A DNA stretch of 64,000 nt from positions 416,001 to 480,000 of the forward strand of contig CAWFQB010000004.1 of NCBI GenBank assembly GCA_963817895.1, given 5' to 3'. The notes under the pieces are model-generated. The model made no database searches. It was not told the origin of the DNA and was given only the letters and a program-made list of their open reading frames with translations. This document shows positions 11,661 through 26,800 of the stretch, in pieces (the first letter of the stretch is position 1; each line of letters starts with the position of its first letter). This DNA comes from an uncultured Chthonomonadaceae bacterium (GTDB lineage Bacteria > Armatimonadota > Chthonomonadetes > Chthonomonadales > Chthonomonadaceae). The position numbers were made by a program, and so were the translations under genes.

Positions 11661-13315
11661 TCATTCCGCGTCGGCGTCGAAGAGTTGGGGATGGGCGAGG
11701 GTTTCGGTGACGGTTCGGGCGGATTTGAGAACTTCCAGGCTCATGGGAATGTCCAGACGCGAACCGGCTTCAAGCATTTCGGCAATGGTGACAATGAGGA
11801 TGCGGGGATAGGTTTTGCCCATCAGCGGGTGCGCGTAAAAGCCCGCCGCGCTCGCCTCGTCGCGCATTCCTCTGGTGGCGTCTTGCAGCGTAAGGAACAC
11901 GGCGAGTTCGGCCCCTACACGCTGCCGGTCATTGTTGAGTTTGGCAATGTCGCCCCGTCCCACGTTCCCGCTTTTCACCTGAAACACGATTTTGGCGTTG
12001 TCGTCCTTGCCCGTGAGGAAATAGGCCATGCCGTCAATGCCGCCATCCCCGCCCTTTTTGTCGTTGATAAGCGCGCGGTTGTGCGAATACGTGAGGACGG
12101 CCCACTTCTCGAACTCTTTGCGAACGCGGTCATCCTTTTTGTGGGCAAGCGCGTTGGCCGCTTCCATATCGCGGGGAACGCCGTTGAGCGTGAGCGTGTC
12201 CAGAACGCCCTTGCCGTACTGCGCTTCCAATCGGCGCAAAATCAGGGCAATGCTCTGGTAGGTAATGTCTATGCCGATCCATTTGCGTTTGAGGCGTTCG
12301 GCAACCGCGACCGTAGTTCCGCACCCGCAGTAAGCGTCCAGAACCACATCGCCCTCGTTGGAAGACGCGGCAATAATTCTTTCGAGAAGCGATTCCGGCT
12401 TTTGTGTTGGGTAGCCAAGACGTTCTGATGCCGTATTTCCAATGCGTTCAATATCTGCCCACACGCTGCCGATGGGCTTCCCTTGCTTCTCGTCAAGAAA
12501 CACTTTGCGCCCGTCAAGGCGCGGAGTGCCGTCTTGTTTCGTTAAAATCAAGCCCTGTTCCCATAACGCTTCCAGTTGTTCTTCGGAAAAGCCCCAACCT
12601 CTGTGCGGCGGCGGAGTCGATCCACGCCATGTAAAATTACGGTGCGCGTTGCCGGTCATTGTCAAATCCTGCCCCGTGACCATGCGCCCCGTAGCCGCGT
12701 CAAGACTGTAGCGCTTCAATTGTTGCGGCGCGAAATCGGTGTACTGAGGATTCCATGTATACCTGTCCGATTTGGTATAGAAGAAAATTGTATCCTGAAC
12801 GCGGGCAAAGTATTTTGACGCGACATTATGGGAGTTTGTGCGCGTCCAGACAATCTCGTTTTTGAAGTCACCGCCATTGGATACGAAAATCGTGTCCAGA
12901 ACAAGTTTGAGATAATGTGACGCGGTGGGGTCGCAATGCAGGTAGAAACTGCCGGTGGGTTTGAGGACGCGGTGAATTTCGGTTATGCGCAGGGCCATGC
13001 TGACGAGATAGGCGAGCAGGCTGCCCTTTTTCAGCACGGGCGCGAGTCCTTTGAGCAGGTCTACAGTTTGGGACGCGAACCGGGCGTGGTCGTTGGCGAG
13101 GATTTCCGCGAAGCCCGCGTCCGCCTGCGCGTCCCACACCCATGTATCCACAAACGCCTGCGCCTGCGCCCGGTCTTCGCTCCCGACGTTGTTATAAATC
13201 TGGTTGTAATTTCGTTTGGATTGAAAGGGGGATCAGAGTAGCAAAGGTCAATGGTTTCATCCCGGACGTATTTGCGCAGAACTTCCAGATTATCGCCGTA
13301 GTAGAGTGTGTTCAC
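11661..13315 (-). CDS. N4/N6 DNA methyltransferase (beta class) fused to a C-terminal Mrr-like endonuclease domain; 1-nt frameshift near 13220
   Basis: LYYGDNL..DPPFN, FYLHCDPTASHY, YPTQKPESLLERII, DAYCGCGTT; C-terminal DGGIDG..QVKSG. Adding one base after AAT restores NSKRNYNQIY. Confidence 0.88.
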
Positions 13316-13380
13316 CCAATCCCCCGATTTCCTGTCCTGCCGCGTTCGCCGCGCAGGAGAGGGGCAGACAGTTTGCTGAT

Positions 13381-13764
13381 CTATTTGTTGGAAGGCGTCG
13401 GAGTTGTTAAAGGCCGGGAGGATTGTCTGTTGGCGCTGCGCGACTGTTTCGGAGTCGTGACAGTACCTGAAGAGGTCGGATTTGCCCGAACGATGCTTTC
13501 CAAATCAGAAACCGTGCAGCTATAACCGATGTTTGTTAGCTGCTGAACAGGATTCCAATCTAATGGTTCCGGTCGTCCCTGCTTGCCCCATGCCCAACGC
13601 GCCCCGCGTGAAATCCAGTCCTCACGCAGTTCCGCAACCGTCCAATCTACGTCGTTAACGTAGAAGGCAAAGAAACAGCAGGGGCAAAGGGCGTCCACTT
13701 CCGGCGCAAAGTCGAGTTCGTAACCACACACCGGGCAATTGCTGCCATATTTTACATTGTTCAT
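13381..13764 (-). CDS. CPCC-type cysteine-rich protein, putative immunity protein/antitoxin
   Basis: CPVCG....CPCC motifs; ATGA overlap with the upstream toxin-like gene. Confidence 0.65.
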   Translation of the reverse strand: MNNVKYGSNCPVCGYELDFAPEVDALCPCCFFAFYVNDVDWTVAELREDWISRGARWAWGKQGRPEPLDWNPVQQLTNIGYSCTVSDLESIVRANPTSSGTVTTPKQSRSANRQSSRPLTTPTPSNK

Positions 13765-14108
13765 CTTGCACACTCATCCAAAAAATACTGGTAGTTGCTG
13801 GTACGCTTATGCGTCTTGTCGCGTGGCGTACCGGGAGGCGCAGCGCTGTACATCATCGGCTTGAAGTACGTCTTGATAATGCCGTTGGCGCGTACAACAG
13901 CAAACTCATTGGTGTTCTTGTCGTAGCGAACCGTCTCTCCATTGGAGCGGGTACATTCTTCAATATCTCCACCCGAAACAAGGGGTTTGTTCAAGAAATC
14001 GCGCGCCTGACTCTCATAGTCGTAGGCATCAATCACACTGAAGTCACTGCCATGGTTTCCATAATGGTCAAGACGGAAGAGTGGGTCAAAGTTGGTAGCG
14101 ACTGGCAC
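13761..14108 (-). CDS. Stand-alone colicin-D-like (BECR-fold) RNase toxin domain
   Basis: DHYGNHGSDF..Y..A..F...R.NGETVRYDKNTNEFAVVRANGIIKTYFKP pattern typical of polymorphic-toxin C-termini; GTG start with AGAGGT RBS. Confidence 0.6.
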   Translation of the reverse strand: MPVATNFDPLFRLDHYGNHGSDFSVIDAYDYESQARDFLNKPLVSGGDIEECTRSNGETVRYDKNTNEFAVVRANGIIKTYFKPMMYSAAPPGTPRDKTHKRTSNYQYFLDECAR

Positions 14109-16056: not shown

Positions 16057-17139
16057 ATGCTGAACACTACGCCGATTACGCCCGGAAAACTGTACGATTG
16101 CCTGCACACGCTGTACCAATTGCGCCTGCCCGCCTATCTTGCCGGCCCGCCCGGTATCGGCAAATCGGCCGTGATACGCAAGTACGCGCAGGAGAACGGC
16201 CTGCAATTGGTTACGCTCATGCTGTCGCAGATTGAGCCTTCCGATGTGCGCGGCCTGCCGTTTCTGGATAAGGAGGCGGGGCGAACCCGCTGGCTGATTC
16301 CCGAATTCTACCCGGACAGCGACTCCGACTCGCGGGGCATCCTGTTTCTGGATGAACTGGCGAACGCCGAACCCCGCGTACAGGTGGCCGCGTATCAACT
16401 GCTGCTGGATCGCAAGGTGGGCGAGTATGAATTGCCGCCGGGTTGGGTGTGCTTTGCGGCGGGAAACCGGCTGGAAGACAACGCCAACGTGTACGAAATG
16501 TCGTCCGCGCTGGCCGACCGGCTGGTTTTCTTCAACGTTTCGTGCGAACCCCGCGACTGGCTGAAATGGGCGCGCGACAACGACATCGCGCCTGAAGTTC
16601 TCGCCTTTATTCAGGTGAAGCCGGACTTTCTCAACGGCAACCAGATGCAGCAGGCGGCGGATCAGATTATTGTGCCGACGCCGCGCAGTTGGGAGCGCGT
16701 GTCGCAAATCGTGAAGGCGGAAAAGAACGCCGAAGTGCGTCAGTTTCTGCTGTCGGGCATCATCGGGGAGGGCGCGAGCGTGGAGTTCTTTCATGTGTTG
16801 GAGGAGATACGCGAACTGCCGCCGATGGAAACCCTGTTCCGCCTGTCCCCGGAAGAGGCGCGGCGCGTGTTTCCTAAAAGCGTGGCGGGCCTGTACGGAC
16901 TGGCGTACAGCGTCACCGCGTACTGCAATGACCTGGAAACCTTCCGCAGGGGCGTGTTGATTTTCAACGAACTGGATCAGGTCGGCCGCAATCTCCCCGG
17001 CGCGGAAATCCAGACGCTGGCAATGGAAATCCTGAATGACAAAGCCGGCAAAATGGGCCTGTGGCAGAAACTGGCCCTGTCGCCGGAGTATGGCATCTAC
17101 CGCAAAAAAGGGCAGCAGGTCTCCCATGTTGGATTGTAA
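16057..17139 (+). CDS. MoxR-like AAA+ ATPase
   Basis: Walker A GPPGIGKS, Walker B ILFLDE, AAGN sensor, ALADRL, PTPRSW. Confidence 0.92.
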   Translation: MLNTTPITPGKLYDCLHTLYQLRLPAYLAGPPGIGKSAVIRKYAQENGLQLVTLMLSQIEPSDVRGLPFLDKEAGRTRWLIPEFYPDSDSDSRGILFLDELANAEPRVQVAAYQLLLDRKVGEYELPPGWVCFAAGNRLEDNANVYEMSSALADRLVFFNVSCEPRDWLKWARDNDIAPEVLAFIQVKPDFLNGNQMQQAADQIIVPTPRSWERVSQIVKAEKNAEVRQFLLSGIIGEGASVEFFHVLEEIRELPPMETLFRLSPEEARRVFPKSVAGLYGLAYSVTAYCNDLETFRRGVLIFNELDQVGRNLPGAEIQTLAMEILNDKAGKMGLWQKLALSPEYGIYRKKGQQVSHVGL

Positions 17140-17150
17140 AAGGCAAACGT

Positions 17151-18401
17151 ATGGAAACTCCTGACAACGCTAACCAACAGACAGCGGCCAGTCACAATAT
17201 AGAGCAGGAAGACGCGGTAAAACGGGCCATGCGCTACGCGGTTACGCAAAGTCCCGGCTTTGCCGCGATTGCGCTCTGGTGTCCCTGGAAAATAGACAAC
17301 AAAGCGGAGTGGGTGGCCTGCACGGACGGCAAAACCATTCGCTTCGGACAGCGATTTTTCACCAATTACACGCCCCTGGAGCAGACAGCCATTCTGACGC
17401 ATGAGATCATGCACGTCGCGCTGCGCCATATTCCGCGCCTGAAAAAAGGCCGTTTCGACCCGCTTGTGTGGAACATCGCTACAGATGCGATCATCAATGA
17501 GGCTGTGGGCAAAATGGCCTGGCTGAACCTGCCCGAAGACGGCGTTCGACTGAATAAATTGCTGACCGCGCAGGAGTTGCAGGATACGCCCGCGCATGAG
17601 TGGACGAGCGAAAGTTTGTACGCGCATCTGCTTAAAAACAAGTCGCATCTGTTGAGACTGCTGAAAGATTTTTTTGGCGACCTGATTCTGGTTCCCGGTG
17701 GAAGCGGCATCTTCGGTGAGGGTGATCTGGCAGACACGACGGACCTGCCGCTGGAAGAGAAAATCTGGAAGGAGCGGCTGATGCGGGCGCAGGCGGGCGA
17801 CCGTCCGGGCGGCCTGATGCGCGCCATGAGCCACGATTTTCCCGAGGACAAAGTGGAATGGGAGAAACTGTTGCGCCGTTTGATGACGCAGCCACTCCTG
17901 CCGCAAACCAAACTCAACTGGAATCGTCCAAGCCGTCGGACACTGGCGCTTGGCGGCGATTACTGGGAACCCGGCAACCGCCCGCGCGATGGCCTGCCAA
18001 CGGCGGGCGTTGTCGTGGATACGTCCGGCAGTATTGATGATGCTCTGCTGACGCGATTCGCGACGGAAATTCAGGGCATACAGCAGCGTGTCGGCTGCCA
18101 CATCTATCTCCTCAGCGCGGACGCCGAAGTGCAATCGGAACAGGTCATCCGCAACGACGGCAAATCGTTCAAGGAAAAAGTGAGGCAGGGCGCGGTACAA
18201 TTCAAGGGGGGCGGCGGCACAGACTTTTACCCGGCCTTGCAGCGCATGAAGGAAAAGAGAGTGCGCGTCTGCGTGTACCTGACCGACCTGTACGGCAACT
18301 TCGGTGAGGAAACCAAATATCCGTTTCCCATTATCTGGGCCAGCATCACGAAAGACCTGCAAGCGCCCTTCGGCAAAACCATTTATATTGGCGAGGATTA
18401 A
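17151..18401 (+). CDS. DUF2201-type putative metallopeptidase (HEXXH) + vWA domain protein
   Basis: HEIMH, WNIATDAIIN; MIDAS DTSGS, GGGGTDF, YLTDLYG. Confidence 0.9.
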   Translation: METPDNANQQTAASHNIEQEDAVKRAMRYAVTQSPGFAAIALWCPWKIDNKAEWVACTDGKTIRFGQRFFTNYTPLEQTAILTHEIMHVALRHIPRLKKGRFDPLVWNIATDAIINEAVGKMAWLNLPEDGVRLNKLLTAQELQDTPAHEWTSESLYAHLLKNKSHLLRLLKDFFGDLILVPGGSGIFGEGDLADTTDLPLEEKIWKERLMRAQAGDRPGGLMRAMSHDFPEDKVEWEKLLRRLMTQPLLPQTKLNWNRPSRRTLALGGDYWEPGNRPRDGLPTAGVVVDTSGSIDDALLTRFATEIQGIQQRVGCHIYLLSADAEVQSEQVIRNDGKSFKEKVRQGAVQFKGGGGTDFYPALQRMKEKRVRVCVYLTDLYGNFGEETKYPFPIIWASITKDLQAPFGKTIYIGED

Positions 18402-18406
18402 GCGAG

Positions 18407-19528
18407 ATGCGAAACAAACATTCGATGCCTCTATCTGAAACCAACGCATTGCCGCCCAGTAATCCGACATTGTATTTTTCGGGATGGGGCTACGATGAGC
18501 GCAATGACCAATCAAGTCAGGATAAAGGGGCGAACGTTCAGGTTGTAACAACAGCCGGGCAATCGTTTGTGTTGCGCAAAATTCGAGACTACATATTTTT
18601 CCGTCGTTGTGGCGAAACAGACGAGCGCGTCAGTTGGTTTCTGCTGGAACACTGCGCGGATGCGTGTAAGTACAAAATTAAGATGTTTCTACAGGAACCC
18701 GCCCCTGATGATTGGAAGGACGATATCAGGGAGTTTCCACAGGAGAAATTTGCAGAAGCGTATGCGCGTCAGGCGTATGGCCGCTGCCTGCTGCATGTTT
18801 CTCCTTCCGCGCAAAAGGGCGAAAGTGGGATGGTGTGCCTGTCACCCGACAACTGCGATTCCTTTGTCCTGAACCGGTCAGGATGTCTCATGGTGCGCTT
18901 CGACTTTCAAAGCGTGATGGAAATGTCCTGGGAGGAACTGCTGTCTGCCGACCTTGAAGCATTGCGCCCCCGGTGTCAATTGTTGCTTAAGATGGCAGCA
19001 CTGAGAGAAAAGGGACTTCATTCGACATCCATACCGTGGATCACACGCGAGTTTGTCAGCGGTTCTGAAGTGGAACTGCGCCGCCTGACGACCATCATTG
19101 CCCAGACCGAGCCGGAACTGTTTGAGAAGAGCGCAGAACCGGTGACAGTGATATATCAGGCGGAAACGGCTGTTAAGCTGGCCCACATAATGCAGATACA
19201 GCGTCGCGGCGCCGGTGGCTACATGGAGGAGTATACCGCTCCTCTGAAAAGATTACGGTATTTATGCGCTCTCGCCCTCCATCAAAACACTTTCATCGGC
19301 GAGGATTGCAGAACGCGCTTCGACTACGGGCAGCAGTGTGGGAGAGTTGTTTACTTTGCGGCTTGGTACGGCGGATTCGACAAAGTTGTGGCGAAGGTGG
19401 AAATTACTGTGCATCCTCCTTCCAACCATGAGCGCGCTGAGTCGCTTTTGAGCCTGTCTGACTGGCTGGAAGGCAAAGTGTCTTCGCCAAAACGCCTGCG
19501 CCTGCTGGGGCTGGACGAGAAAAGATAG
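18407..19528 (+). CDS. Unknown-family protein, tandem paralog 1 of 5
   Basis: Shares LYFSGWGYDER, YGRCLL, SGSE.ELRRLT, LC.LAL..NTF.G, PPS.HERAESLL.L.DWLEGKV..KRLRLLG with neighbours. Confidence 0.85.
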   Translation: MRNKHSMPLSETNALPPSNPTLYFSGWGYDERNDQSSQDKGANVQVVTTAGQSFVLRKIRDYIFFRRCGETDERVSWFLLEHCADACKYKIKMFLQEPAPDDWKDDIREFPQEKFAEAYARQAYGRCLLHVSPSAQKGESGMVCLSPDNCDSFVLNRSGCLMVRFDFQSVMEMSWEELLSADLEALRPRCQLLLKMAALREKGLHSTSIPWITREFVSGSEVELRRLTTIIAQTEPELFEKSAEPVTVIYQAETAVKLAHIMQIQRRGAGGYMEEYTAPLKRLRYLCALALHQNTFIGEDCRTRFDYGQQCGRVVYFAAWYGGFDKVVAKVEITVHPPSNHERAESLLSLSDWLEGKVSSPKRLRLLGLDEKR

Positions 19529-19620
19529 CAGGACAACAACGCAGAGGCGCAAGAGCAAAAGCCATGAGCATCGAAACGTAAGAAGAAAATCATAAAAGTA
19601 GAGCCGTAAGGACACAAGCT

Positions 19621-20637
19621 ATGGATACAGAGGAAGAAATGCAGACCGGACTCTTCTTTTCCTGCGGGTATTATGACAGCCGCGAGGCGGAACAGTATGA
19701 GCGCGAAGAGGGTCTGGATGCCGTCGCCGTGAAAATCGGCAGGCGCATATTCGCCGCGAGAACGATGGCCGGGTACGCCCTGTTCCGGGATGTGGAAGAC
19801 GAAGATGAGCGAGCGGCTTTGTTTATCGCGCAGCCCTATGTGGCAAGCGAATCCGATCCGCGCTATTTCAACAGGCAGTGGTTTGTTCAACAATGGAAAC
19901 AGGGCGCGTTCGGACGCTGCTTAATCTTCGTTGCCCCCTATATGACGCAGTGGCAGTGCGCCCATATTCTGTTTCGGCCCGACGGCACAGGGCTTGCGGC
20001 AGACACCTTTGAAAATCCCTTGTTGGAGTTTGTGTGGAGGGAAGCGACGCCGCTGTCATGGCCGGAACTGCTACAGGCCGACCCGGACGATTTGCAGCCG
20101 CTTTGCAAAACCATTTTCGAGACACAGGTGAATACGCGCATTGTCAACGCCTACCTTGCGCCGCTTGGCATAACGCCCGAAGATTTTGTGGACGTGCCGC
20201 CCCGGTTCGAGTGTGGTTCCGAGCAGGAATTGCGCCGACTTACCGTTGCCATTCTCCATTCGCACCCCGGCTTGTTTGAAGATAACGCGAAGACGATTAC
20301 CATCAAGTATCGCGCCAGAACCGCGAACAAGCGGGCGTTTATGGCACTGATAGATCGGTATGACGCGGAACCCATGCCGCATCTGGGACGGCTGCAATCC
20401 CTGTGCGATCTGGCCCTGCGCCTGAATACCTTTGTGGGCGAAACCTGGACACACTGGATGGACACGCCCACCCGCAAGGGTGACTTCGACAAACAGATGC
20501 ACAAAATATTTGTGGAAGCGCAGCCGCCCTCCGCCCACGAACGCGCCGAGTCCCTCCTGCTGCTTAACGATTGGCTCATGAATAAAGTTCGCCCGGAAAA
20601 ACGCCTGCGCCTGCTCGGTATTGACGCGGAAGAATAG
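19621..20637 (+). CDS. Unknown-family protein, tandem paralog 2 of 5
   Basis: Same motif series (FGRCLI, PDGTG, CGSEQELRRLT, LCDLALRLNTF, PPSAHERAESLL). Confidence 0.85.
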   Translation: MDTEEEMQTGLFFSCGYYDSREAEQYEREEGLDAVAVKIGRRIFAARTMAGYALFRDVEDEDERAALFIAQPYVASESDPRYFNRQWFVQQWKQGAFGRCLIFVAPYMTQWQCAHILFRPDGTGLAADTFENPLLEFVWREATPLSWPELLQADPDDLQPLCKTIFETQVNTRIVNAYLAPLGITPEDFVDVPPRFECGSEQELRRLTVAILHSHPGLFEDNAKTITIKYRARTANKRAFMALIDRYDAEPMPHLGRLQSLCDLALRLNTFVGETWTHWMDTPTRKGDFDKQMHKIFVEAQPPSAHERAESLLLLNDWLMNKVRPEKRLRLLGIDAEE

Positions 20638-20665
20638 AATTACACCACATGAAAGAGCCAACGAG

Positions 20666-21718
20666 ATGAATTGGTTTCGTAAGCGCGGGGAGACCACCCC
20701 GAAGATAGCCACCCTGCATTTTGCCGGGTGGGGCTACGATGATCGCGAGGACGCCAACGTTTATCGTGAGGAGGGTGCGAATGTTCTCGTCGTGGAAACG
20801 GGCAAACAGGCGTTTATTCTGCGTGAAATGACTAATTATGTGTTCTTCCGGCGTCGGGACGAATCCGATGAACGCGCCTCCTGGTTCCTGCTGGAAGATT
20901 ACAAACATGGCTTTCTAAATGGTGGCTGGCGGGGCGATATAAAGAGATTTCCGCCGCAGACGTTTATTGAAGATCACGCGAAACAGGCATATGGCCGTTG
21001 CCTGCTGTATGTGGCCGACTTTATGAAGGAGCATCAGTGCGCGTTTCTGTGCTTTGCCCCCGATGGAACCGGCTTTGCCATTGACTACACCGAGGAACGA
21101 TTGGTGGATTTTCGCTGGCAGGACATAACGCGAATGGAGTGGCCGGAACTGCGCGAAGCCGACCCGGAGAGTTTGCGCCCCCTCTGTCGGGCCGTGTTCG
21201 ATTCGCTGGTACATCCGCGCCTGACCAATCCTTACATTAACCCCAACAGCCTGAAAGACATTCCGCATGAGTTTATCAGCGGCTCCGAGCAGGAACTCCG
21301 CCGCCTGACAACGATTATTGTTCAAACGCAGCCGGGATTATTTGACGAGGAGTTGAAACCCGTTACCGTCGTTTATCGGGCGCAGACGCCCACAAAGCGG
21401 GCGTATATGGTGCGGGTAATGCGCGGAGGGGAGAATGACTATGCGGAAAGCGTCACCGAACGATTGGGACGGCTGCAATCTCTGTGCGACCTTGCTTTGC
21501 GCCTGAACACCTTTACGGGCGTGAAATGGGAGGAATGGGACGAAAATCCGAATCGCCTGGGGCATTTCATAAAAGAGGTTCGGCAAGCGCGTATCGAAGT
21601 GCAGCCCCCCACCGCCCACGAACGCGCCGAGTCGCTGTTGAGCCTTGCCGACTGGCTGCAAGGCAAAGTGCGCGAGGAGAAAAGGCTGCGACTGCTCGGC
21701 GTGGAAAATGATTCATGA
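20666..21718 (+). CDS. Unknown-family protein, tandem paralog 3 of 5
   Basis: Same motif series; ATG at 20666 chosen. Confidence 0.85.
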   Translation: MNWFRKRGETTPKIATLHFAGWGYDDREDANVYREEGANVLVVETGKQAFILREMTNYVFFRRRDESDERASWFLLEDYKHGFLNGGWRGDIKRFPPQTFIEDHAKQAYGRCLLYVADFMKEHQCAFLCFAPDGTGFAIDYTEERLVDFRWQDITRMEWPELREADPESLRPLCRAVFDSLVHPRLTNPYINPNSLKDIPHEFISGSEQELRRLTTIIVQTQPGLFDEELKPVTVVYRAQTPTKRAYMVRVMRGGENDYAESVTERLGRLQSLCDLALRLNTFTGVKWEEWDENPNRLGHFIKEVRQARIEVQPPTAHERAESLLSLADWLQGKVREEKRLRLLGVENDS

Positions 21719-22881
21719 AACTATGGAAACAGATAAAAGCGCTATGGAGCGGGCCAACGCCTGAACGCGCAGACTCGCCCCATAACGACCTGACGGAAAC
21801 GCTGCCGGATGCGGCCATTACGCCGCGTCCGCTCGTGGATACGGCAGGCTGGCAGAAAAAGCCAATCCTGCCTCCACTTGCCAAACCAACGCTGTACTTT
21901 TCAGGATGGGGGTTTGATGAGCGCGCGGGACACTGGAGTAGCAAAGACCGGGGCAAACAGACGGTGGACTTGGAAGCGGCGGGGCGGCGCTACATTATAC
22001 GGCGCGACAGCAGGCATTTGCTGTTTCGCGAACGCGGCGACAGTGATGAACGCGCGTCCCTGTATTTGACCCGACTGCTGGAAAATGCCTGGTCGTTCAA
22101 TCTCTCGAGCTATTCGGCGCGCTCTTTTGCCGAACAGATTGAACACGGAAAGTACGGGCGTTGGCTGTTGTACGTTGCCGACAACATGAAACCGGATCAG
22201 TGCGCGTTTCTGGCCTTTGATCCGAACGGCAGCGGATTTGCGATAGATGAACGCCTGACCGAACTGGCGGTTTTCCACTGGCAGGCGGCCACGCGGCTGT
22301 CCTGGCGGGAACTGCTGTCCGCAGACCCGGAAACCCTGCGCCCCCTGTGCGCCGACCTGTTTGCCACGCAGATTAATCCTGCCAGCAGTAACCCGTACAT
22401 TGACCCGGCAAACCTGGAAACCATTCCACACCGTTTTTTGTCGGGTTCGGAGGAAGAGTTGCGCCGCCTTACCCTTGCCATCGCGCACACCGAACCCGGA
22501 CTGTTCGACAGCAGTCTGGAACCGGTTACGATCACGTACCGGGCGCAAACGCCGCGCAAACGGGCGGGCATGACGCGGGCGCAGCAGGGGAAAGCTCAAC
22601 TCACACGGGGGCGGGTGACTTCGCTGTGCGATCTGGCCCTGCGCCTGAATACCTTTGTTGGCATCGAGTGGGAACCGAACCAACCCGAACCGAAGCGGCT
22701 GGGACATTTTGAGAAGCGCGTCCACAAAGTCAGCGTGACCGCGCATCCCCCATCCGCGCACGAACGCGCCGAATCCCTGCTGATACTGGCGGACTGGCTG
22801 GAAGGCAAAGTGCGGGAGGAGAAACGTCTGCGCCTGCTGGGAATAGAGGAGTACACGAATGACTGTGGAAAGCGCGTATGA
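21715..22881 (+). CDS. Unknown-family protein, tandem paralog 4 of 5
   Basis: Same motif series; ATGA overlap with paralog 3. Confidence 0.85.
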   Translation: MKLWKQIKALWSGPTPERADSPHNDLTETLPDAAITPRPLVDTAGWQKKPILPPLAKPTLYFSGWGFDERAGHWSSKDRGKQTVDLEAAGRRYIIRRDSRHLLFRERGDSDERASLYLTRLLENAWSFNLSSYSARSFAEQIEHGKYGRWLLYVADNMKPDQCAFLAFDPNGSGFAIDERLTELAVFHWQAATRLSWRELLSADPETLRPLCADLFATQINPASSNPYIDPANLETIPHRFLSGSEEELRRLTLAIAHTEPGLFDSSLEPVTITYRAQTPRKRAGMTRAQQGKAQLTRGRVTSLCDLALRLNTFVGIEWEPNQPEPKRLGHFEKRVHKVSVTAHPPSAHERAESLLILADWLEGKVREEKRLRLLGIEEYTNDCGKRV

Positions 22882-23935
22882 TTTTCCGCTGCCGGGGTTC
22901 TGGTCGGATCGCGCGGTCGCGGAGCAGGTATGTGATATTGACGGCACACGCTATCTGCTACGGCAACTGGATGAACATGTGCTTTACCGCGTAAGTGACC
23001 GCAACTGCGTGGAACATACGTTCTTCGTGCCTTATCGTACTGCCTCGGGGCGAAAGAGAAGCGGTTCCCGACAGCCAGCGGAAACAAATACTCGGACGAG
23101 CAGGCATAGGTATAATGCCCTTGCCGCTCGGATTAGAAAACCGCCGCGTATGTACTCTCAAAGCGTTTTTACGAAACAAATCTCAAAAGGTGAAAACGGG
23201 CGTGTAACGTTATACTGCTGCCCGGATGCGAGGGACTGCAATACAATTCTTTTCTTCCGGCAAGATGGCACAGGCTATTTTTTGGACTTTCACACCGCGA
23301 ACGGTTATAGTAGACATGAGCCGACGGAACAGGTAGATTTTGTGTGGGACGGAACTCGTTACGACATTGCCGGAGGCGCAGGAATTTTGACGGCGAAATG
23401 GGCGCAGTTGGAACCGCTGTGTCACGAGGTTTTTACAAAACAAGTATGGCGGCGTATGAAAAACCCGTTCGTTCGCTACAAAAAGACGCCAGATGCGCCA
23501 CTTGTCTGGCAGCGCGGCTCACAGGAAGAGTTGTTCCGTATCTCGCATTGCATTTTCCATACGCAACCCGGCGATTGGTCGGAACTGGAACTACAGGCGC
23601 CTGATAAGTGGACGATTGAAAACCATTGTTTTGGCTTGATCTATGTGGCCGAAATGGAAGCAAGCGCTGGTGGGGCCTCAAAGGACTGGCCGGAGCGGAT
23701 ACGCGCCCTGTGCGATCTCGCCTTTCAGCACAACACGTTTACAGGTTATCAATGGGTGTACAGTCGCTACAACAAATCACGCCGCAAAAGTTATACGATG
23801 CAGCCCTTGACACTAACGTGCCGCATCGCGCCGCCCTCCGCCCACGAACGCGCTGAAGCCTTGCTCACGCTCTGGGACTGGCTGGAAGACAAAGTTTCAG
23901 AGGCAGAGCGGCGGGCCTACTGTGGAGTAGATTAA
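22859..23935 (+). CDS. Unknown-family protein, tandem paralog 5 of 5 (most divergent)
   Basis: GRVTLY, QDGTG, RGSQEELFR, LCDLAFQHNTF.G, PPSAHERAEALL.L.DWLEDKV. Confidence 0.8.
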   Translation: MTVESAYDFPLPGFWSDRAVAEQVCDIDGTRYLLRQLDEHVLYRVSDRNCVEHTFFVPYRTASGRKRSGSRQPAETNTRTSRHRYNALAARIRKPPRMYSQSVFTKQISKGENGRVTLYCCPDARDCNTILFFRQDGTGYFLDFHTANGYSRHEPTEQVDFVWDGTRYDIAGGAGILTAKWAQLEPLCHEVFTKQVWRRMKNPFVRYKKTPDAPLVWQRGSQEELFRISHCIFHTQPGDWSELELQAPDKWTIENHCFGLIYVAEMEASAGGASKDWPERIRALCDLAFQHNTFTGYQWVYSRYNKSRRKSYTMQPLTLTCRIAPPSAHERAEALLTLWDWLEDKVSEAERRAYCGVD

Positions 23936-24315: not shown

Positions 24316-25570
24316 GGTAGCACCGCATTAAACGGTGAAAAGTAGGGTTGCGGCGCAACAGGGTGGGTGAATGCGCAAGTGGGTTCGGCTGCTTCGTAGA
24401 GTTGGTTACCACACCAAAACTCACGGAGGTCGCCATGAACCCACACCCCCTATTCTGCCTTAATCTGGCCTGTTCGTCAAGAGGCTTGCAAAATGCAGGC
24501 AACATCATCGTTCACGACAGTCTGCGCGACCGCTTTCGCTGCAAGACCTGCGGACACACCTTTAGCGCCAGCAAAGGAACCCTGTTCTACCGGCTGCGCA
24601 CCGACCCCAAGATCGTCATCTGTGTGCTGACACTTCTCGCCTGTGGGTGTCCGCTTCCTGCCATTGTCCGCGCTTTCGGCTTTGACGAGCGAACCGTCAC
24701 GAACTGGCAGCACAAAGCGGGGCAACATTGTGAAGCCGTCCACACGCATCTGGTGACAGGACACGCGCGCGACTTGCAGCAGGTGCAAGCCGATGAGGTT
24801 CGCGTCAAGCTGCAAGCGCGTCTGGTGATCTGGATGGCGATGGCAATCTGCGTTCCCTCGCGCTTGTGGCTGGGCGGGGTTCTCTCGCCGCACCGAGACA
24901 AACGCCTGATTGTCCGTCTGGTCGCTGTGGTCAAAGCCTGTGCGCAACACGCGCCCTTGCTGCTGATGAGCGATGGCTTGAGCAGTTATGTTCCGGCCTG
25001 GTGCCACGCCTTCCGCGAGGCGGTTCGTACCGGCAAGGTAGGTCGCCCGCGTTTACAGACGTGGCCGCATCTGGTAATCGGGCAAGTGGTCAAGCAGTAC
25101 GAACGTGGGCGCGTGATTGGCGTCGCGCAACGTCTGATACACGGCACGGTGGATCAACTGCAAGGCTTGCAGCCCGACGAACACAAACTCAACACGGCCT
25201 ATATCGAACGGCTCAATGCGACCTTCCGGCAACGGCTGTGTTGCTTGACACGGCGCGGTCGGTGTTTAGTTCGCCACGAAGCCACATTGCAGGCGGGCAT
25301 GTACTTGCTCGGTTGCGTGTACAACTTCTGTACGTTTCACAAGAGCCTGCGCCAGGAGCAGGGCAAAGGTTCGGGCAAGTGGCAACAGCGTACTCCGGCG
25401 ATGGCCGCGGGGATCACGCAAGAGTGCTGGAGCGTGACCGATTTGTTCGCCTACCGAGTACCGCCTGCGCCGTTTGTTGCCAGAAAGCGGCGGGGCCGCC
25501 CACCGGGAAGCGGCAAGAAAACGGCGCAAACGAGCGCACAAGCATAATCACACTTAACTGTGGGGCTACC
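24316..25570 (+). mobile_element. IS1-family insertion sequence with 9-bp target site duplication
   Basis: Ends GGTAGCACCGCATTAAA / TTAACTGTGGGGCTACC (imperfect IR); TTCATTGCA duplicated at 24307-24315 and 25571-25579. Confidence 0.92.
24435..25547 (+). CDS. IS1-family transposase (Zn ribbon + HTH + DDE, single ORF)
   Basis: GGAGGT RBS; C....C / FRCKTCGHTF; QADE; SDGLSSY; NTAYIERLNATFRQ; YNF; RTPAMAAG. Confidence 0.88.
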   Translation: MNPHPLFCLNLACSSRGLQNAGNIIVHDSLRDRFRCKTCGHTFSASKGTLFYRLRTDPKIVICVLTLLACGCPLPAIVRAFGFDERTVTNWQHKAGQHCEAVHTHLVTGHARDLQQVQADEVRVKLQARLVIWMAMAICVPSRLWLGGVLSPHRDKRLIVRLVAVVKACAQHAPLLLMSDGLSSYVPAWCHAFREAVRTGKVGRPRLQTWPHLVIGQVVKQYERGRVIGVAQRLIHGTVDQLQGLQPDEHKLNTAYIERLNATFRQRLCCLTRRGRCLVRHEATLQAGMYLLGCVYNFCTFHKSLRQEQGKGSGKWQQRTPAMAAGITQECWSVTDLFAYRVPPAPFVARKRRGRPPGSGKKTAQTSAQA

Positions 25571-26727: not shown

Positions 26728-26800
26728 GCCGACATGGCTCAGTGGTAGAGCAGCTGTTTCGTAAACAGCAGGTCAGCGGTTCGAAATCCGCTTGTCGGCT
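26728..26800 (+). tRNA. tRNA-Thr (anticodon CGT), CCA not encoded
   Basis: Acceptor GCCGACA/TGTCGGC, D-arm GCTCAGTGGTAGAGC, anticodon arm GCTGT-TTCGTAA-ACAGC, T-arm GGTTCGAAATCC (one extra A in the loop). Confidence 0.93.

Follow-up and report, generated by a model that had tools for sequence, protein, structure and literature searches.

In a 64,000-nucleotide stretch of DNA from an uncultured Chthonomonadaceae bacterium (the window), a MoxR-like AAA+ ATPase gene and a metallopeptidase-vWA gene are followed by five paralogs of an unnamed family, which we call FAM as a working name. The link of FAM to this AAA/DUF2201 subclade is real, and it is not obligatory. The locus is best read as a single core machine with several adaptors, a variation on known MoxR-vWA ternary systems. 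We tentatively favor, at somewhat less than an even chance, a scheme in which the AAA ATPase and the zincin-vWA protein would be one ATP-driven remodelling-and-cutting machine, and the FAM paralogs its interchangeable cytoplasmic adaptors.

The locus consists of seven genes.
16057-17139, + strand: AAA, a MoxR-like AAA+ ATPase (AAA_5, PHROG 1297), 360 aa, by Pfam and PHROG (E 9e-79).
17151-18401, + strand: DUF2201 protein with an N-terminal HExxH zincin-like metallopeptidase domain and a C-terminal vWA domain, 416 aa, by Pfam and PHROG 1314.
18407-19528, + strand: FAM paralog 1 (p1), 373 aa, the most divergent in the p1-p4 group, by ORF and BLASTP.
19621-20637, + strand: FAM paralog 2 (p2), 338 aa, by ORF and BLASTP.
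20666-21718, + strand: FAM paralog 3 (p3), 350 aa, by ORF, BLASTP and an AF2 model.
21715-22881, + strand: FAM paralog 4 (p4), 388 aa, by ORF and BLASTP.
22859-23935, + strand: FAM paralog 5 (p5), 358 aa, a separate old subfamily, by ORF, BLASTP and tree.

As the initial annotation had it, these ORFs are co-oriented at these coordinates and tightly packed, with gaps of 11, 5, 92 and 28 bp followed by overlaps of 4 and 23 bp, as read from the sequence. A promoter and terminator scan of the locus stayed at chance level (5 vs 4.4 and 12 vs 13.1, respectively), so the operon status of the window genes is a matter of spacing alone.

The first two genes are what they had been taken for. AAA matches Pfam AAA_5 at 32.2 bits (cut-off 22), and gene 2 matches DUF2201_N at 121.7 bits (residues 21-160) and DUF2201 at 88.3 bits (residues 287-413). 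Catalytic motifs are intact; 14 AAA orthologs show no change in the Walker A/B or other motor residues, and 15 vWA orthologs none in the HExxH residues H84/E85/H88 and the MIDAS residues D290/S292/S294/T357/D379. By sequence, an ATPase with intact Walker A/B next to a HExxH and vWA/MIDAS protein is an AAA_5 + DUF2201 pair. The vWA domain runs to residue 413 of the 416-residue protein, with no fused effector. The C-terminal extension of the window AAA is common to the FAM-linked AAA subclade, and a second AAA of the same genome matches it within residues 7-201 only. At E ≤ 1e-20, 570 phage records and 81 plasmid records contain a homolog of the window AAA. In the literature searched, no tested partner or substrate of the pair was found.

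BLASTP places the five downstream genes as paralogs far beyond chance, with pairwise identity of 22.5-50.9% over 276-364 residues (E 1e-14 to 1e-116). The ordered motifs by which they had been grouped are less uniform than annotated; GWGYD is not in p5, and PDG.G as written is not in p1, p4 or p5. The sequence between motifs is not variable as had been stated, since p1-p4 align over their whole length at 32-51%. Likewise, the conserved unit is not a C-terminal helix but a whole domain of ~165 residues, which is also found alone. FAM proteins range from 160 to 500 aa. The paralogs contain no 19-residue hydrophobic stretch above 1.2, in agreement with the annotated lack of TM segments and signal peptides, and hydropathy rules out a membrane or secreted role.

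FAM is indeed an unrecognized family. Pfam gives no usable match for 48 members or for 29 distant members, nor do NCBIfam, PHROGs and PADLOC; a PDB sequence search reached E 1.4 at best, and ESM Atlas returned no usable match to one paralog as query. In the AF2 model of p3 (pLDDT 88.6, pTM 0.79), a beta-meander N-terminal half is predicted to precede a conserved alpha/beta C-terminal domain. Foldseek found nothing in the PDB at E ≤ 0.001 for either FAM model, and fold comparison by VIA-align gave best Z of 5.4 and 3.8 for the two models, although a missing fold match is no proof of a new fold. A match in a viral structure library at E 7.5e-4 was discarded (TM 0.14, rmsd 24). A predicted complex of AAA, vWA and the p3 C-domain (score 0.00, controls not folded) says nothing either way on binding.

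Co-occurrence was surveyed in 401 Armatimonadota genomes. Fourteen of them, all with FAM, carry the close DUF2201 subclade (identity of 44-81% at E ≤ 7e-83, against 3e-31 for the next best). FAM matches were obtained in 17 genomes including 13 of these 14, while the 14th (G152) was recovered by a local profile (E 7e-8). No FAM match appeared in the 36 genomes with distant DUF2201 alone, where absence means 'not found' because the phylum-wide searches scored five candidates per genome and missed G152. Four of the 17 FAM-positive genomes are without the close vWA, and two of these, G066 and G112 (96% complete), are without the AAA as well. Short copies consisting of the C-domain alone lie in unrelated neighborhoods; among 193 distant FAM clusters, genome context was read for a minority.

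Gene order is AAA-vWA-FAM in three genomes (G000, G389 and G261) and vWA-FAM in another (G405). In genus g84, distant from the window's genus, FAM lies directly beside AAA in all 11 genomes where it was located, even where the vWA gene has relocated, and the layouts are co-oriented upstream, downstream and divergent. These AAA-adjacent FAMs occupy at least five different positions in the FAM tree; all 11 belong to a single genus and are not independent cases. FAM tracks this AAA/DUF2201 subclade and adjoins the ATPase across genera. Neither of two results that the initial annotation had set against its own proposal, membership of a characterized family and mostly unlinked homologs, occurred. 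Copy number also varies: each genome has one close core pair but anywhere between 1 and at least 36 FAM matches, with 36 reached in g84, and arrays of 11, 8 and 9 genes were found.

Conceivably, the linkage is only historical, a phage-derived cassette having been captured once and FAM having then duplicated alone, so that it no longer works with the pair. The abundance of AAA homologs in phages and a full cassette on a phage contig (see below) are in line with this, as are the dispersal of most g84 FAM copies away from the core and the persistence of FAM in G066 and G112, which have no core. On the other hand, AAA adjacency is kept in all of the rearranged g84 loci and with different FAM lineages, G107 (93% complete) lacks FAM together with the close versions of both core genes, and the core catalytic residues are invariant. 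We consider a merely historical linkage quite improbable.

The paralogs are old. The nearest ortholog of p1 (P0012) is 49% identical, and orthologs are found at 71-87% for p2, 65-88% for p3 and 54-84% for p4. In a quick tree built from 76 chosen rows and limited to their last 235 residues, each paralog is closest to its own ortholog in other genomes, and p5-type is the sole FAM type in the sister genome G261. Inter-paralog DNA matches are at 66-81%, except for two pieces below 30 bp, and every paralog has a closer relative in its ortholog elsewhere than in the array, which rules out recent tandem duplication or gene conversion. A repertoire in rapid turnover is not supported; these are old, stable orthologous subfamilies, not a hypervariable array. 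Between the window and G389, identity is 89% for AAA, 80.5% for vWA, 68% for p3, 54-62% for p4 and 56-66% for p5. Between the window and G261, it is 77% for AAA, 66% for vWA, 67.5% for the flanking BNR gene and 43% for p5. Judged by these identities, FAM diverges faster than the core.

Such conserved subfamilies, together with an array order retained between G096 and G170, would fit a fixed division of labor better than an arms race. They also suit another explanation, in which the FAM proteins would be clients of the machine, folded, assembled or trimmed into a hetero-oligomer as fixed subunits with a cellular, non-defense job. Orthologs of p2-p5 recur on many contigs, MoxR-vWA pairs often mature one client according to the part of PMC9976466 used here, and the peptidase-fused pair has been proposed to assemble and process proteins in jumbo phages in the relevant part of PMC7824862. 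However, fixed subunits are hard to reconcile with a FAM copy number spanning 1-2 to 36, with a different FAM lineage as the AAA neighbor in different species, and with divergence faster than that of the ordinary flanking gene. We regard this client role as rather unlikely.

Elsewhere, the module has a fourth member, DUF6915, which the initial annotation overlooked. A metagenome contig (L007) carries the four genes in the order AAA-vWA-DUF6915-FAM. A viral contig (L055), the only one with FAM in viral contig scans, reads FAM-orf-AAA-vWA-DUF6915; here FAM and DUF6915 are two genes apart. Phage and plasmid collections gave no FAM match with three queries. In 9/9 loci, three of them in genomes without the core, FAM immediately follows a member of the DUF6915 subclade nearest to the phage copy; in G066 and G112, FAM is kept behind DUF6915. 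This adjacency was thus seen in nine other genomes and L007, not in the window's genus, which is without both DUF6915 and the YND motif otherwise common in FAM. DUF6915 was not found in the literature searched.

These observations raise a further possibility, that FAM is an antitoxin or immunity protein against DUF6915-type enzymes, the ATPase-peptidase being a chaperone or a trigger that removes the antitoxin and window-type arrays being orphan immunity stocks against foreign DUF6915. Apart from the 9/9 adjacency, DUF6915 homologs are present in phage (127) and plasmid (216) records. Also, DUF6878 (PF21798) is the annotated neighbor of DUF6915 (PF21866) in four of eight records fetched; DUF6915 adjoins FAM as it does DUF6878 elsewhere, and both FAM and DUF6878 have a helix-GW..NDG.Y-strand stretch. 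When the FAM YND region was compared by hhalign with a profile of four annotated, trimmed DUF6878 sequences, the probability was 17-30% (P 5e-4 to 1.5e-3) vs 0.1 and 0.3% for controls, and it was below 3% with a mixed set that included three non-DUF6878 and five only DUF6878-like proteins. This similarity is weak, below any family threshold; FAM has no Pfam match to PF21798, and it adds an N-terminal half and terminal helices.

Tandem paralog arrays are also known for esaG. In one fold search, the immunity protein EsaG was the top match of the modeled FAM C-domain, a weak likeness (Z 5.4, rmsd 5.4, 85 aligned), which drops with the single-domain FAM model to a value within the range for common arrangements (Z 3.2, rmsd 4.7, 84 aligned). 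EsaG/BH3703-type immunity proteins are thus the best if weak fold likeness, at an rmsd of about 5; FAM has no sequence match to them, and no secreted toxin lies beside the window array. Moreover, the toxicity of DUF6915 is only presumed. Because the window's genus keeps the core although it lacks YND and DUF6915, the FAM copies of the window appear to go with the ATPase rather than with DUF6915. An immunity function is, in our view, unlikely.

Among known systems, MoxR-vWA ternary systems (Kaur et al. 2020, PMC7159879) have a conserved third component and a proposed conflict role. In the portion of that study considered here, their general definition is a MoxR and vWA pair with a conserved linked third gene, which FAM is in the present locus, and the third component is more variable than the ATPase, as here. 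Unlike the systems in that portion, FAM is not VMAP, iSTAND, FtsH or beta-propeller, the window vWA has a zincin at its N terminus and lacks a C-terminal effector, and gene order varies; they also comprise several complete cognate sets, whereas here one core is accompanied by many third-component paralogs. A variable effector, either joined to the vWA or carried as an extra gene, also belongs to the general definition; DUF6915, which is not known to have any activity, could be such an extra component elsewhere, but it is absent from the window. A VMAP system was rejected because 48 FAM members have no such Pfam match and the order is not strictly VMAP-MoxR-vWA. Rejected likewise were iSTAND, FtsH and beta-propeller systems, with no Pfam/NCBIfam match and a different architecture in the FAM models, and bpMoxR, for which the window AAA scores 22.1 bits (cut-off 27).

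Group 2.2 jumbo phages (Iyer et al. 2021, PMC7824862) have a MoxR and metallopeptidase-vWA pair, with a proposed role in virion assembly. As far as that account is drawn on here, the two-gene architecture is identical (AAA_5 + DUF2201; PHROG 1297 + 1314), and the description contains no third partner. In NorQ-NorD, with which CbbQ-CbbO and RavA-ViaA are named (PMC9976466), the part of the paper on mechanism offers a model: a hexameric MoxR ATPase, a vWA adaptor, and a MIDAS that grips the client by an acidic residue of the latter. Unlike the window, NorQ-NorD as presented there has a single defined enzyme as its client and neither a peptidase domain nor a paralog repertoire.

The neighborhood had been taken to suggest defense, which the evidence does not bear out. 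The upstream MTase-Mrr gene is present but frameshifted near its start, and the 'toxin pair' is without a Pfam, NCBIfam or PADLOC match. The IS is an IS1-like transposase with six near-identical copies in the genome, and the tRNA is tRNA-Thr; MTase, IS and tRNA show no defense island. The upstream BNR gene is kept in G261, and with the flank so conserved there is no recent island. PADLOC (2023 library) matched 0/7 window genes. The defense-island argument is thus weak. A conflict role, with action on foreign proteins such as those of phages, would be the likeliest purpose of the module.

In the adaptor scheme that we favor, the ATPase and the zincin-vWA protein would join as one ATP-driven machine, on which the shared FAM C-terminal domain would dock while the divergent halves pick different targets. 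FAM would supply or present a client gripped at the MIDAS, the ATPase would loosen it, and the HExxH site would cut it. The ancestral module may have had DUF6915 as a fourth gene, judging from one phage contig and one metagenome contig, with FAM holding it via the YND hairpin; the window's genus would have lost DUF6915 and YND and retained the core and adaptors. A fuller version, targeted proteolysis by one core with up to dozens of adaptors, arising from a four-gene AAA-DUF2201-DUF6915-FAM conflict cassette also in phages, is possible but doubtful. Such an arrangement would be like cullin substrate receptors, but without ubiquitin.

At the least, FAM is a new, heavily expanded domain family, whose model fits no solved fold well. 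Phages, plasmids and bacteria commonly carry the AAA + DUF2201 pair, for which FAM and DUF6915 are now candidate partners. The four-gene L007 and seven-gene window putative operons open the question to direct test. If FAM copies are adaptors, the machine would amount to a bacterial protease that can be programmed through a large set of natural receptors.

The seven co-oriented genes first reported here lie as described; successive genes are separated by 11, 5, 92 and 28 bp and then overlap by 4 and 23 bp. The first (16057-17139, + strand) is an AAA_5 ATPase in Pfam and PHROG 1297, and the second (17151-18401, + strand) carries DUF2201_N and DUF2201 in Pfam and falls in PHROG 1314. Walker A/B residues are invariant across 14 orthologs of the ATPase (AAA), and HExxH and MIDAS residues across 15 orthologs of the second protein (vWA). 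Here 'core' refers to this pair, and 'FAM' to the unnamed family of the next five genes (18407-23935, + strand), whose products are paralogs of one another, as proposed, at 22.5-50.9% pairwise identity, and soluble by hydropathy. Paralog 5 lacks the N-terminal GWGYD motif that was ascribed to all five. With a sixth, short copy of the C-terminal domain alone elsewhere on the contig, two profiles give a genome total of six.

FAM was rightly called unrecognised, since no usable match was found in Pfam, NCBIfam, PHROGs, PADLOC, PDB sequences or the ESM Atlas. The five-paralog profile matched 193 clusters (E ≤ 0.001) among 1.84 billion representatives. The common core of the family is a C-terminal domain of ~165 residues, best conserved at G-S-x-x-E-L, N-x-x-x-G and P-S-x-H-E-x-x-E-A-x-x-x-L-x-x-W-L. 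Distant members have an additional hairpin motif, W-E-Y-N-D-G ('YND'), which is absent from all five window paralogs; YNDG is invariant in a 23-row alignment (A5), and a relaxed form occurs in 50 of 114 rows of another (A4). Models of paralog 3 (pLDDT 88.6) and of a stand-alone domain (pLDDT 88.1) were both confident, and Foldseek found nothing for them in the PDB. With VIA-align, the best hits were EsaG (Z 5.4, rmsd 5.4, 85 aligned) and, for the single domain, one at Z 3.8, both under the tool's meaningful level. FAM also occurs as two complete units fused head to tail (699 and 726 aa) and with a repeated N-terminal unit (P0042, P0044, P0132), which shows a modular build. Incidentally, short C-domain-only copies (L001:7514-8173, L005:9908-10459, L006:9920-10498 and 13167-13754) lie away from the ATPase; the small genes around them belong to a different unnamed paralog family, which shares the N-terminal motif MEPK.GKRIVS.

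Co-occurrence was examined in 401 genomes of the phylum (Armatimonadota). The DUF2201 protein was matched at E ≤ 1e-10 in 50 genomes, of which 14 stand sharply apart as a close group (≥ 44% identity, E ≤ 7e-83; next match 3e-31). FAM was found in 17 genomes, 13 of them in this group; the fourteenth member, G152, has a FAM copy adjoining its ATPase by a local profile, and the 36 other genomes with DUF2201 are all missing from the FAM list. The suggested association holds for the close AAA/DUF2201 subclade. Four FAM genomes have no close vWA: G066 and G112 (96% complete), which lack AAA too, G374 (86% complete, partial copy) and G213 (80% complete). Around vWA the link is looser: the regions read in G134, G188 and G205 showed no FAM, the last two being cut by contig ends.

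FAM was matched in 5 of 42 genomes of the window's family, with the orders AAA-vWA-FAM x5 (window genome), x3 with frameshifts (G389) and x2 (G261), and vWA-FAM (G405). In g84, a genus belonging to a different family, FAM was matched in 11 of the 13 genomes, with a copy number varying from 1 to 36 matches; G107 lacks FAM, close vWA and close AAA. FAM directly adjoins AAA in all 11 g84 genomes with AAA located, whether upstream, downstream or divergent, and even with vWA elsewhere. The adjoining FAM genes occupy at least five places in a quick tree. Chance adjacency was estimated at no more than a few percent per genome (tens of copies, several thousand genes), but the g84 genomes are kin. A purely historical FAM-core linkage is improbable.

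Other pairs were also seen. A distant AAA + DUF2201-like pair with no FAM adjoining, both ORFs apparently split, lies on contig C2 of the window's own genome (L002:8555-11569), and similar pairs occur in G107, G205, G188 and G084. In G266 and G152, a 530-570 aa gene separates AAA from vWA (L048:3380-5080, L049:7885-9471), that of G152 weakly matching CHAT (caspase-like).

The initial annotation found the neighbourhood, from its MTase-Mrr, toxin pair, IS and tRNA, to fit a defence or conflict role. It reads:
11661-13315, - strand, DNA methyltransferase-Mrr fusion gene, frameshifted near its start, with the DPPF-containing N-terminus in another frame
13381-14108, - strand, 115-aa and 130-aa ORFs, the latter with two CxxC-like motifs
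24348-25547, + strand, IS1-like transposase, six near-identical copies in the genome
25560-26120, + strand, papain-like fragment (Peptidase_C1, below cut-off) directly downstream of the transposase
26728-26800, tRNA-Thr

It gives no evidence for defence, because the junction of AAA with the flanking BNR gene is kept in G261, the methyltransferase-Mrr gene is frameshifted (a broken gene or an assembly error) and the IS is present in six copies. The IS may have interrupted the papain-like gene. The two small ORFs, resembling the orphan tip of a polymorphic toxin and the Cys-rich gene for immunity to it, had no match in Pfam, NCBIfam or PADLOC.

Comparison with G261 gave 67.5% for BNR, 77% for AAA, 66% for vWA and 43% for paralog 5, and with G389 89% for AAA, 80.5% for vWA and 54-68% for the paralogs; FAM evolves apart faster than the core and BNR. 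The idea of a diversified repertoire is upheld to that extent, but not as fast turnover. FAM homologs fall into the types of paralogs 1-5 at up to 88%, and in the quick tree each window paralog pairs with its ortholog within a clade of 29 rows (SH-aLRT 95). The paralogs are old subfamilies, and the repertoire, once diversified, has been retained; this argues against a rapid arms race.

At some other loci FAM is accompanied by DUF6915. A pattern scan of viral contigs returned one locus, L055, with a YND-type FAM gene, a 157-aa ORF, AAA, DUF2201 and DUF6915 in a row; the ORF has a FAM-like terminal motif, yet is unmatched by FAM profiles. This 121-kb contig has a second MoxR + vWA pair (L055:3838-6430, bpMoxR above cut-off) 2.5 kb upstream of the cassette. 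A metagenome locus (L007, with identical matches from L008) reads AAA-vWA-DUF6915-FAM. DUF6915 occurs in 19 of the 401 genomes at 24 places; it is directly upstream of FAM at all nine nearest the phage copy (53-62%), and FAM lies within 1.5 kb at none of the other 15. In G096 and G170 it stands at the head of FAM arrays (11 and 8 genes, respectively) whose order largely agrees, and a further array, of 9 genes, is present in G188. That FAM proteins are antitoxins or immunity proteins against DUF6915, with the core as trigger, is unlikely.

DUF6915 was not found in the window genome (81% complete), G261 (97%) or G389. Because the window's genus is without both DUF6915 and YND, this one lineage suggests that the YND hairpin would serve DUF6915 and the remaining FAM domain the core. 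DUF6878 is annotated adjoining or fused to DUF6915 in 4 of 8 records fetched, and its helix-NDG-strand stretch aligns with FAM at a probability of 17-30% (controls 0.1-0.3%); a possible relationship is a lead, not a result. DUF6878 and DUF6915 are naturally fused on a plasmid from Phaeobacter (L092:2701-3450), although a frameshift may account for this. Upstream of further DUF6915 genes (L072-L076, L095:3573-3998) comes an unnamed small protein of a third type, seen in several Armatimonadota genomes as well as a Ralstonia phage; it starts like YLVQ..WEYND..Y, so with a YND-like motif of its own, and ends in YEVIEVEL. A literature search returned no paper on DUF6915 or DUF6878.

In NorQ-NorD, a vWA protein is the adaptor of a hexameric MoxR ATPase and takes hold of the client by an acidic residue bound at its MIDAS (PMC9976466). 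Since the window's vWA adaptor, unlike that one, carries a zincin, cutting and remodelling are probably coupled, an idea already put forward for this AAA + DUF2201 pair in jumbo phages (PMC7824862). That many FAM genes, with a constant C-domain and a variable N-half, stand beside a single close core pair per genome tentatively favours FAM proteins as adaptors that would deliver different targets to a single core machine; that they are instead client subunits of the core is unlikely.

With a MoxR-vWA gene pair and a conserved, linked third gene, the locus comes under the broad definition of MoxR-vWA ternary systems, yet it lacks the features of VMAP and other named subsystems, as far as the available text of PMC7159879 describes them. 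The module is real and conserved, and apparently undescribed in the accessible literature on DUF2201, MoxR-vWA-metallopeptidase conflict, N4-like vWA/ATPase/gp25 and Armatimonad MoxR, though supplements of PMC7159879 and PMC7824862 could carry an internal name for FAM. Judged from gene content, DUF6915 is a fourth module gene lost in the window's genus. What is known is the ATPase-peptidase pair; what is new is the strongly expanded third family, FAM.
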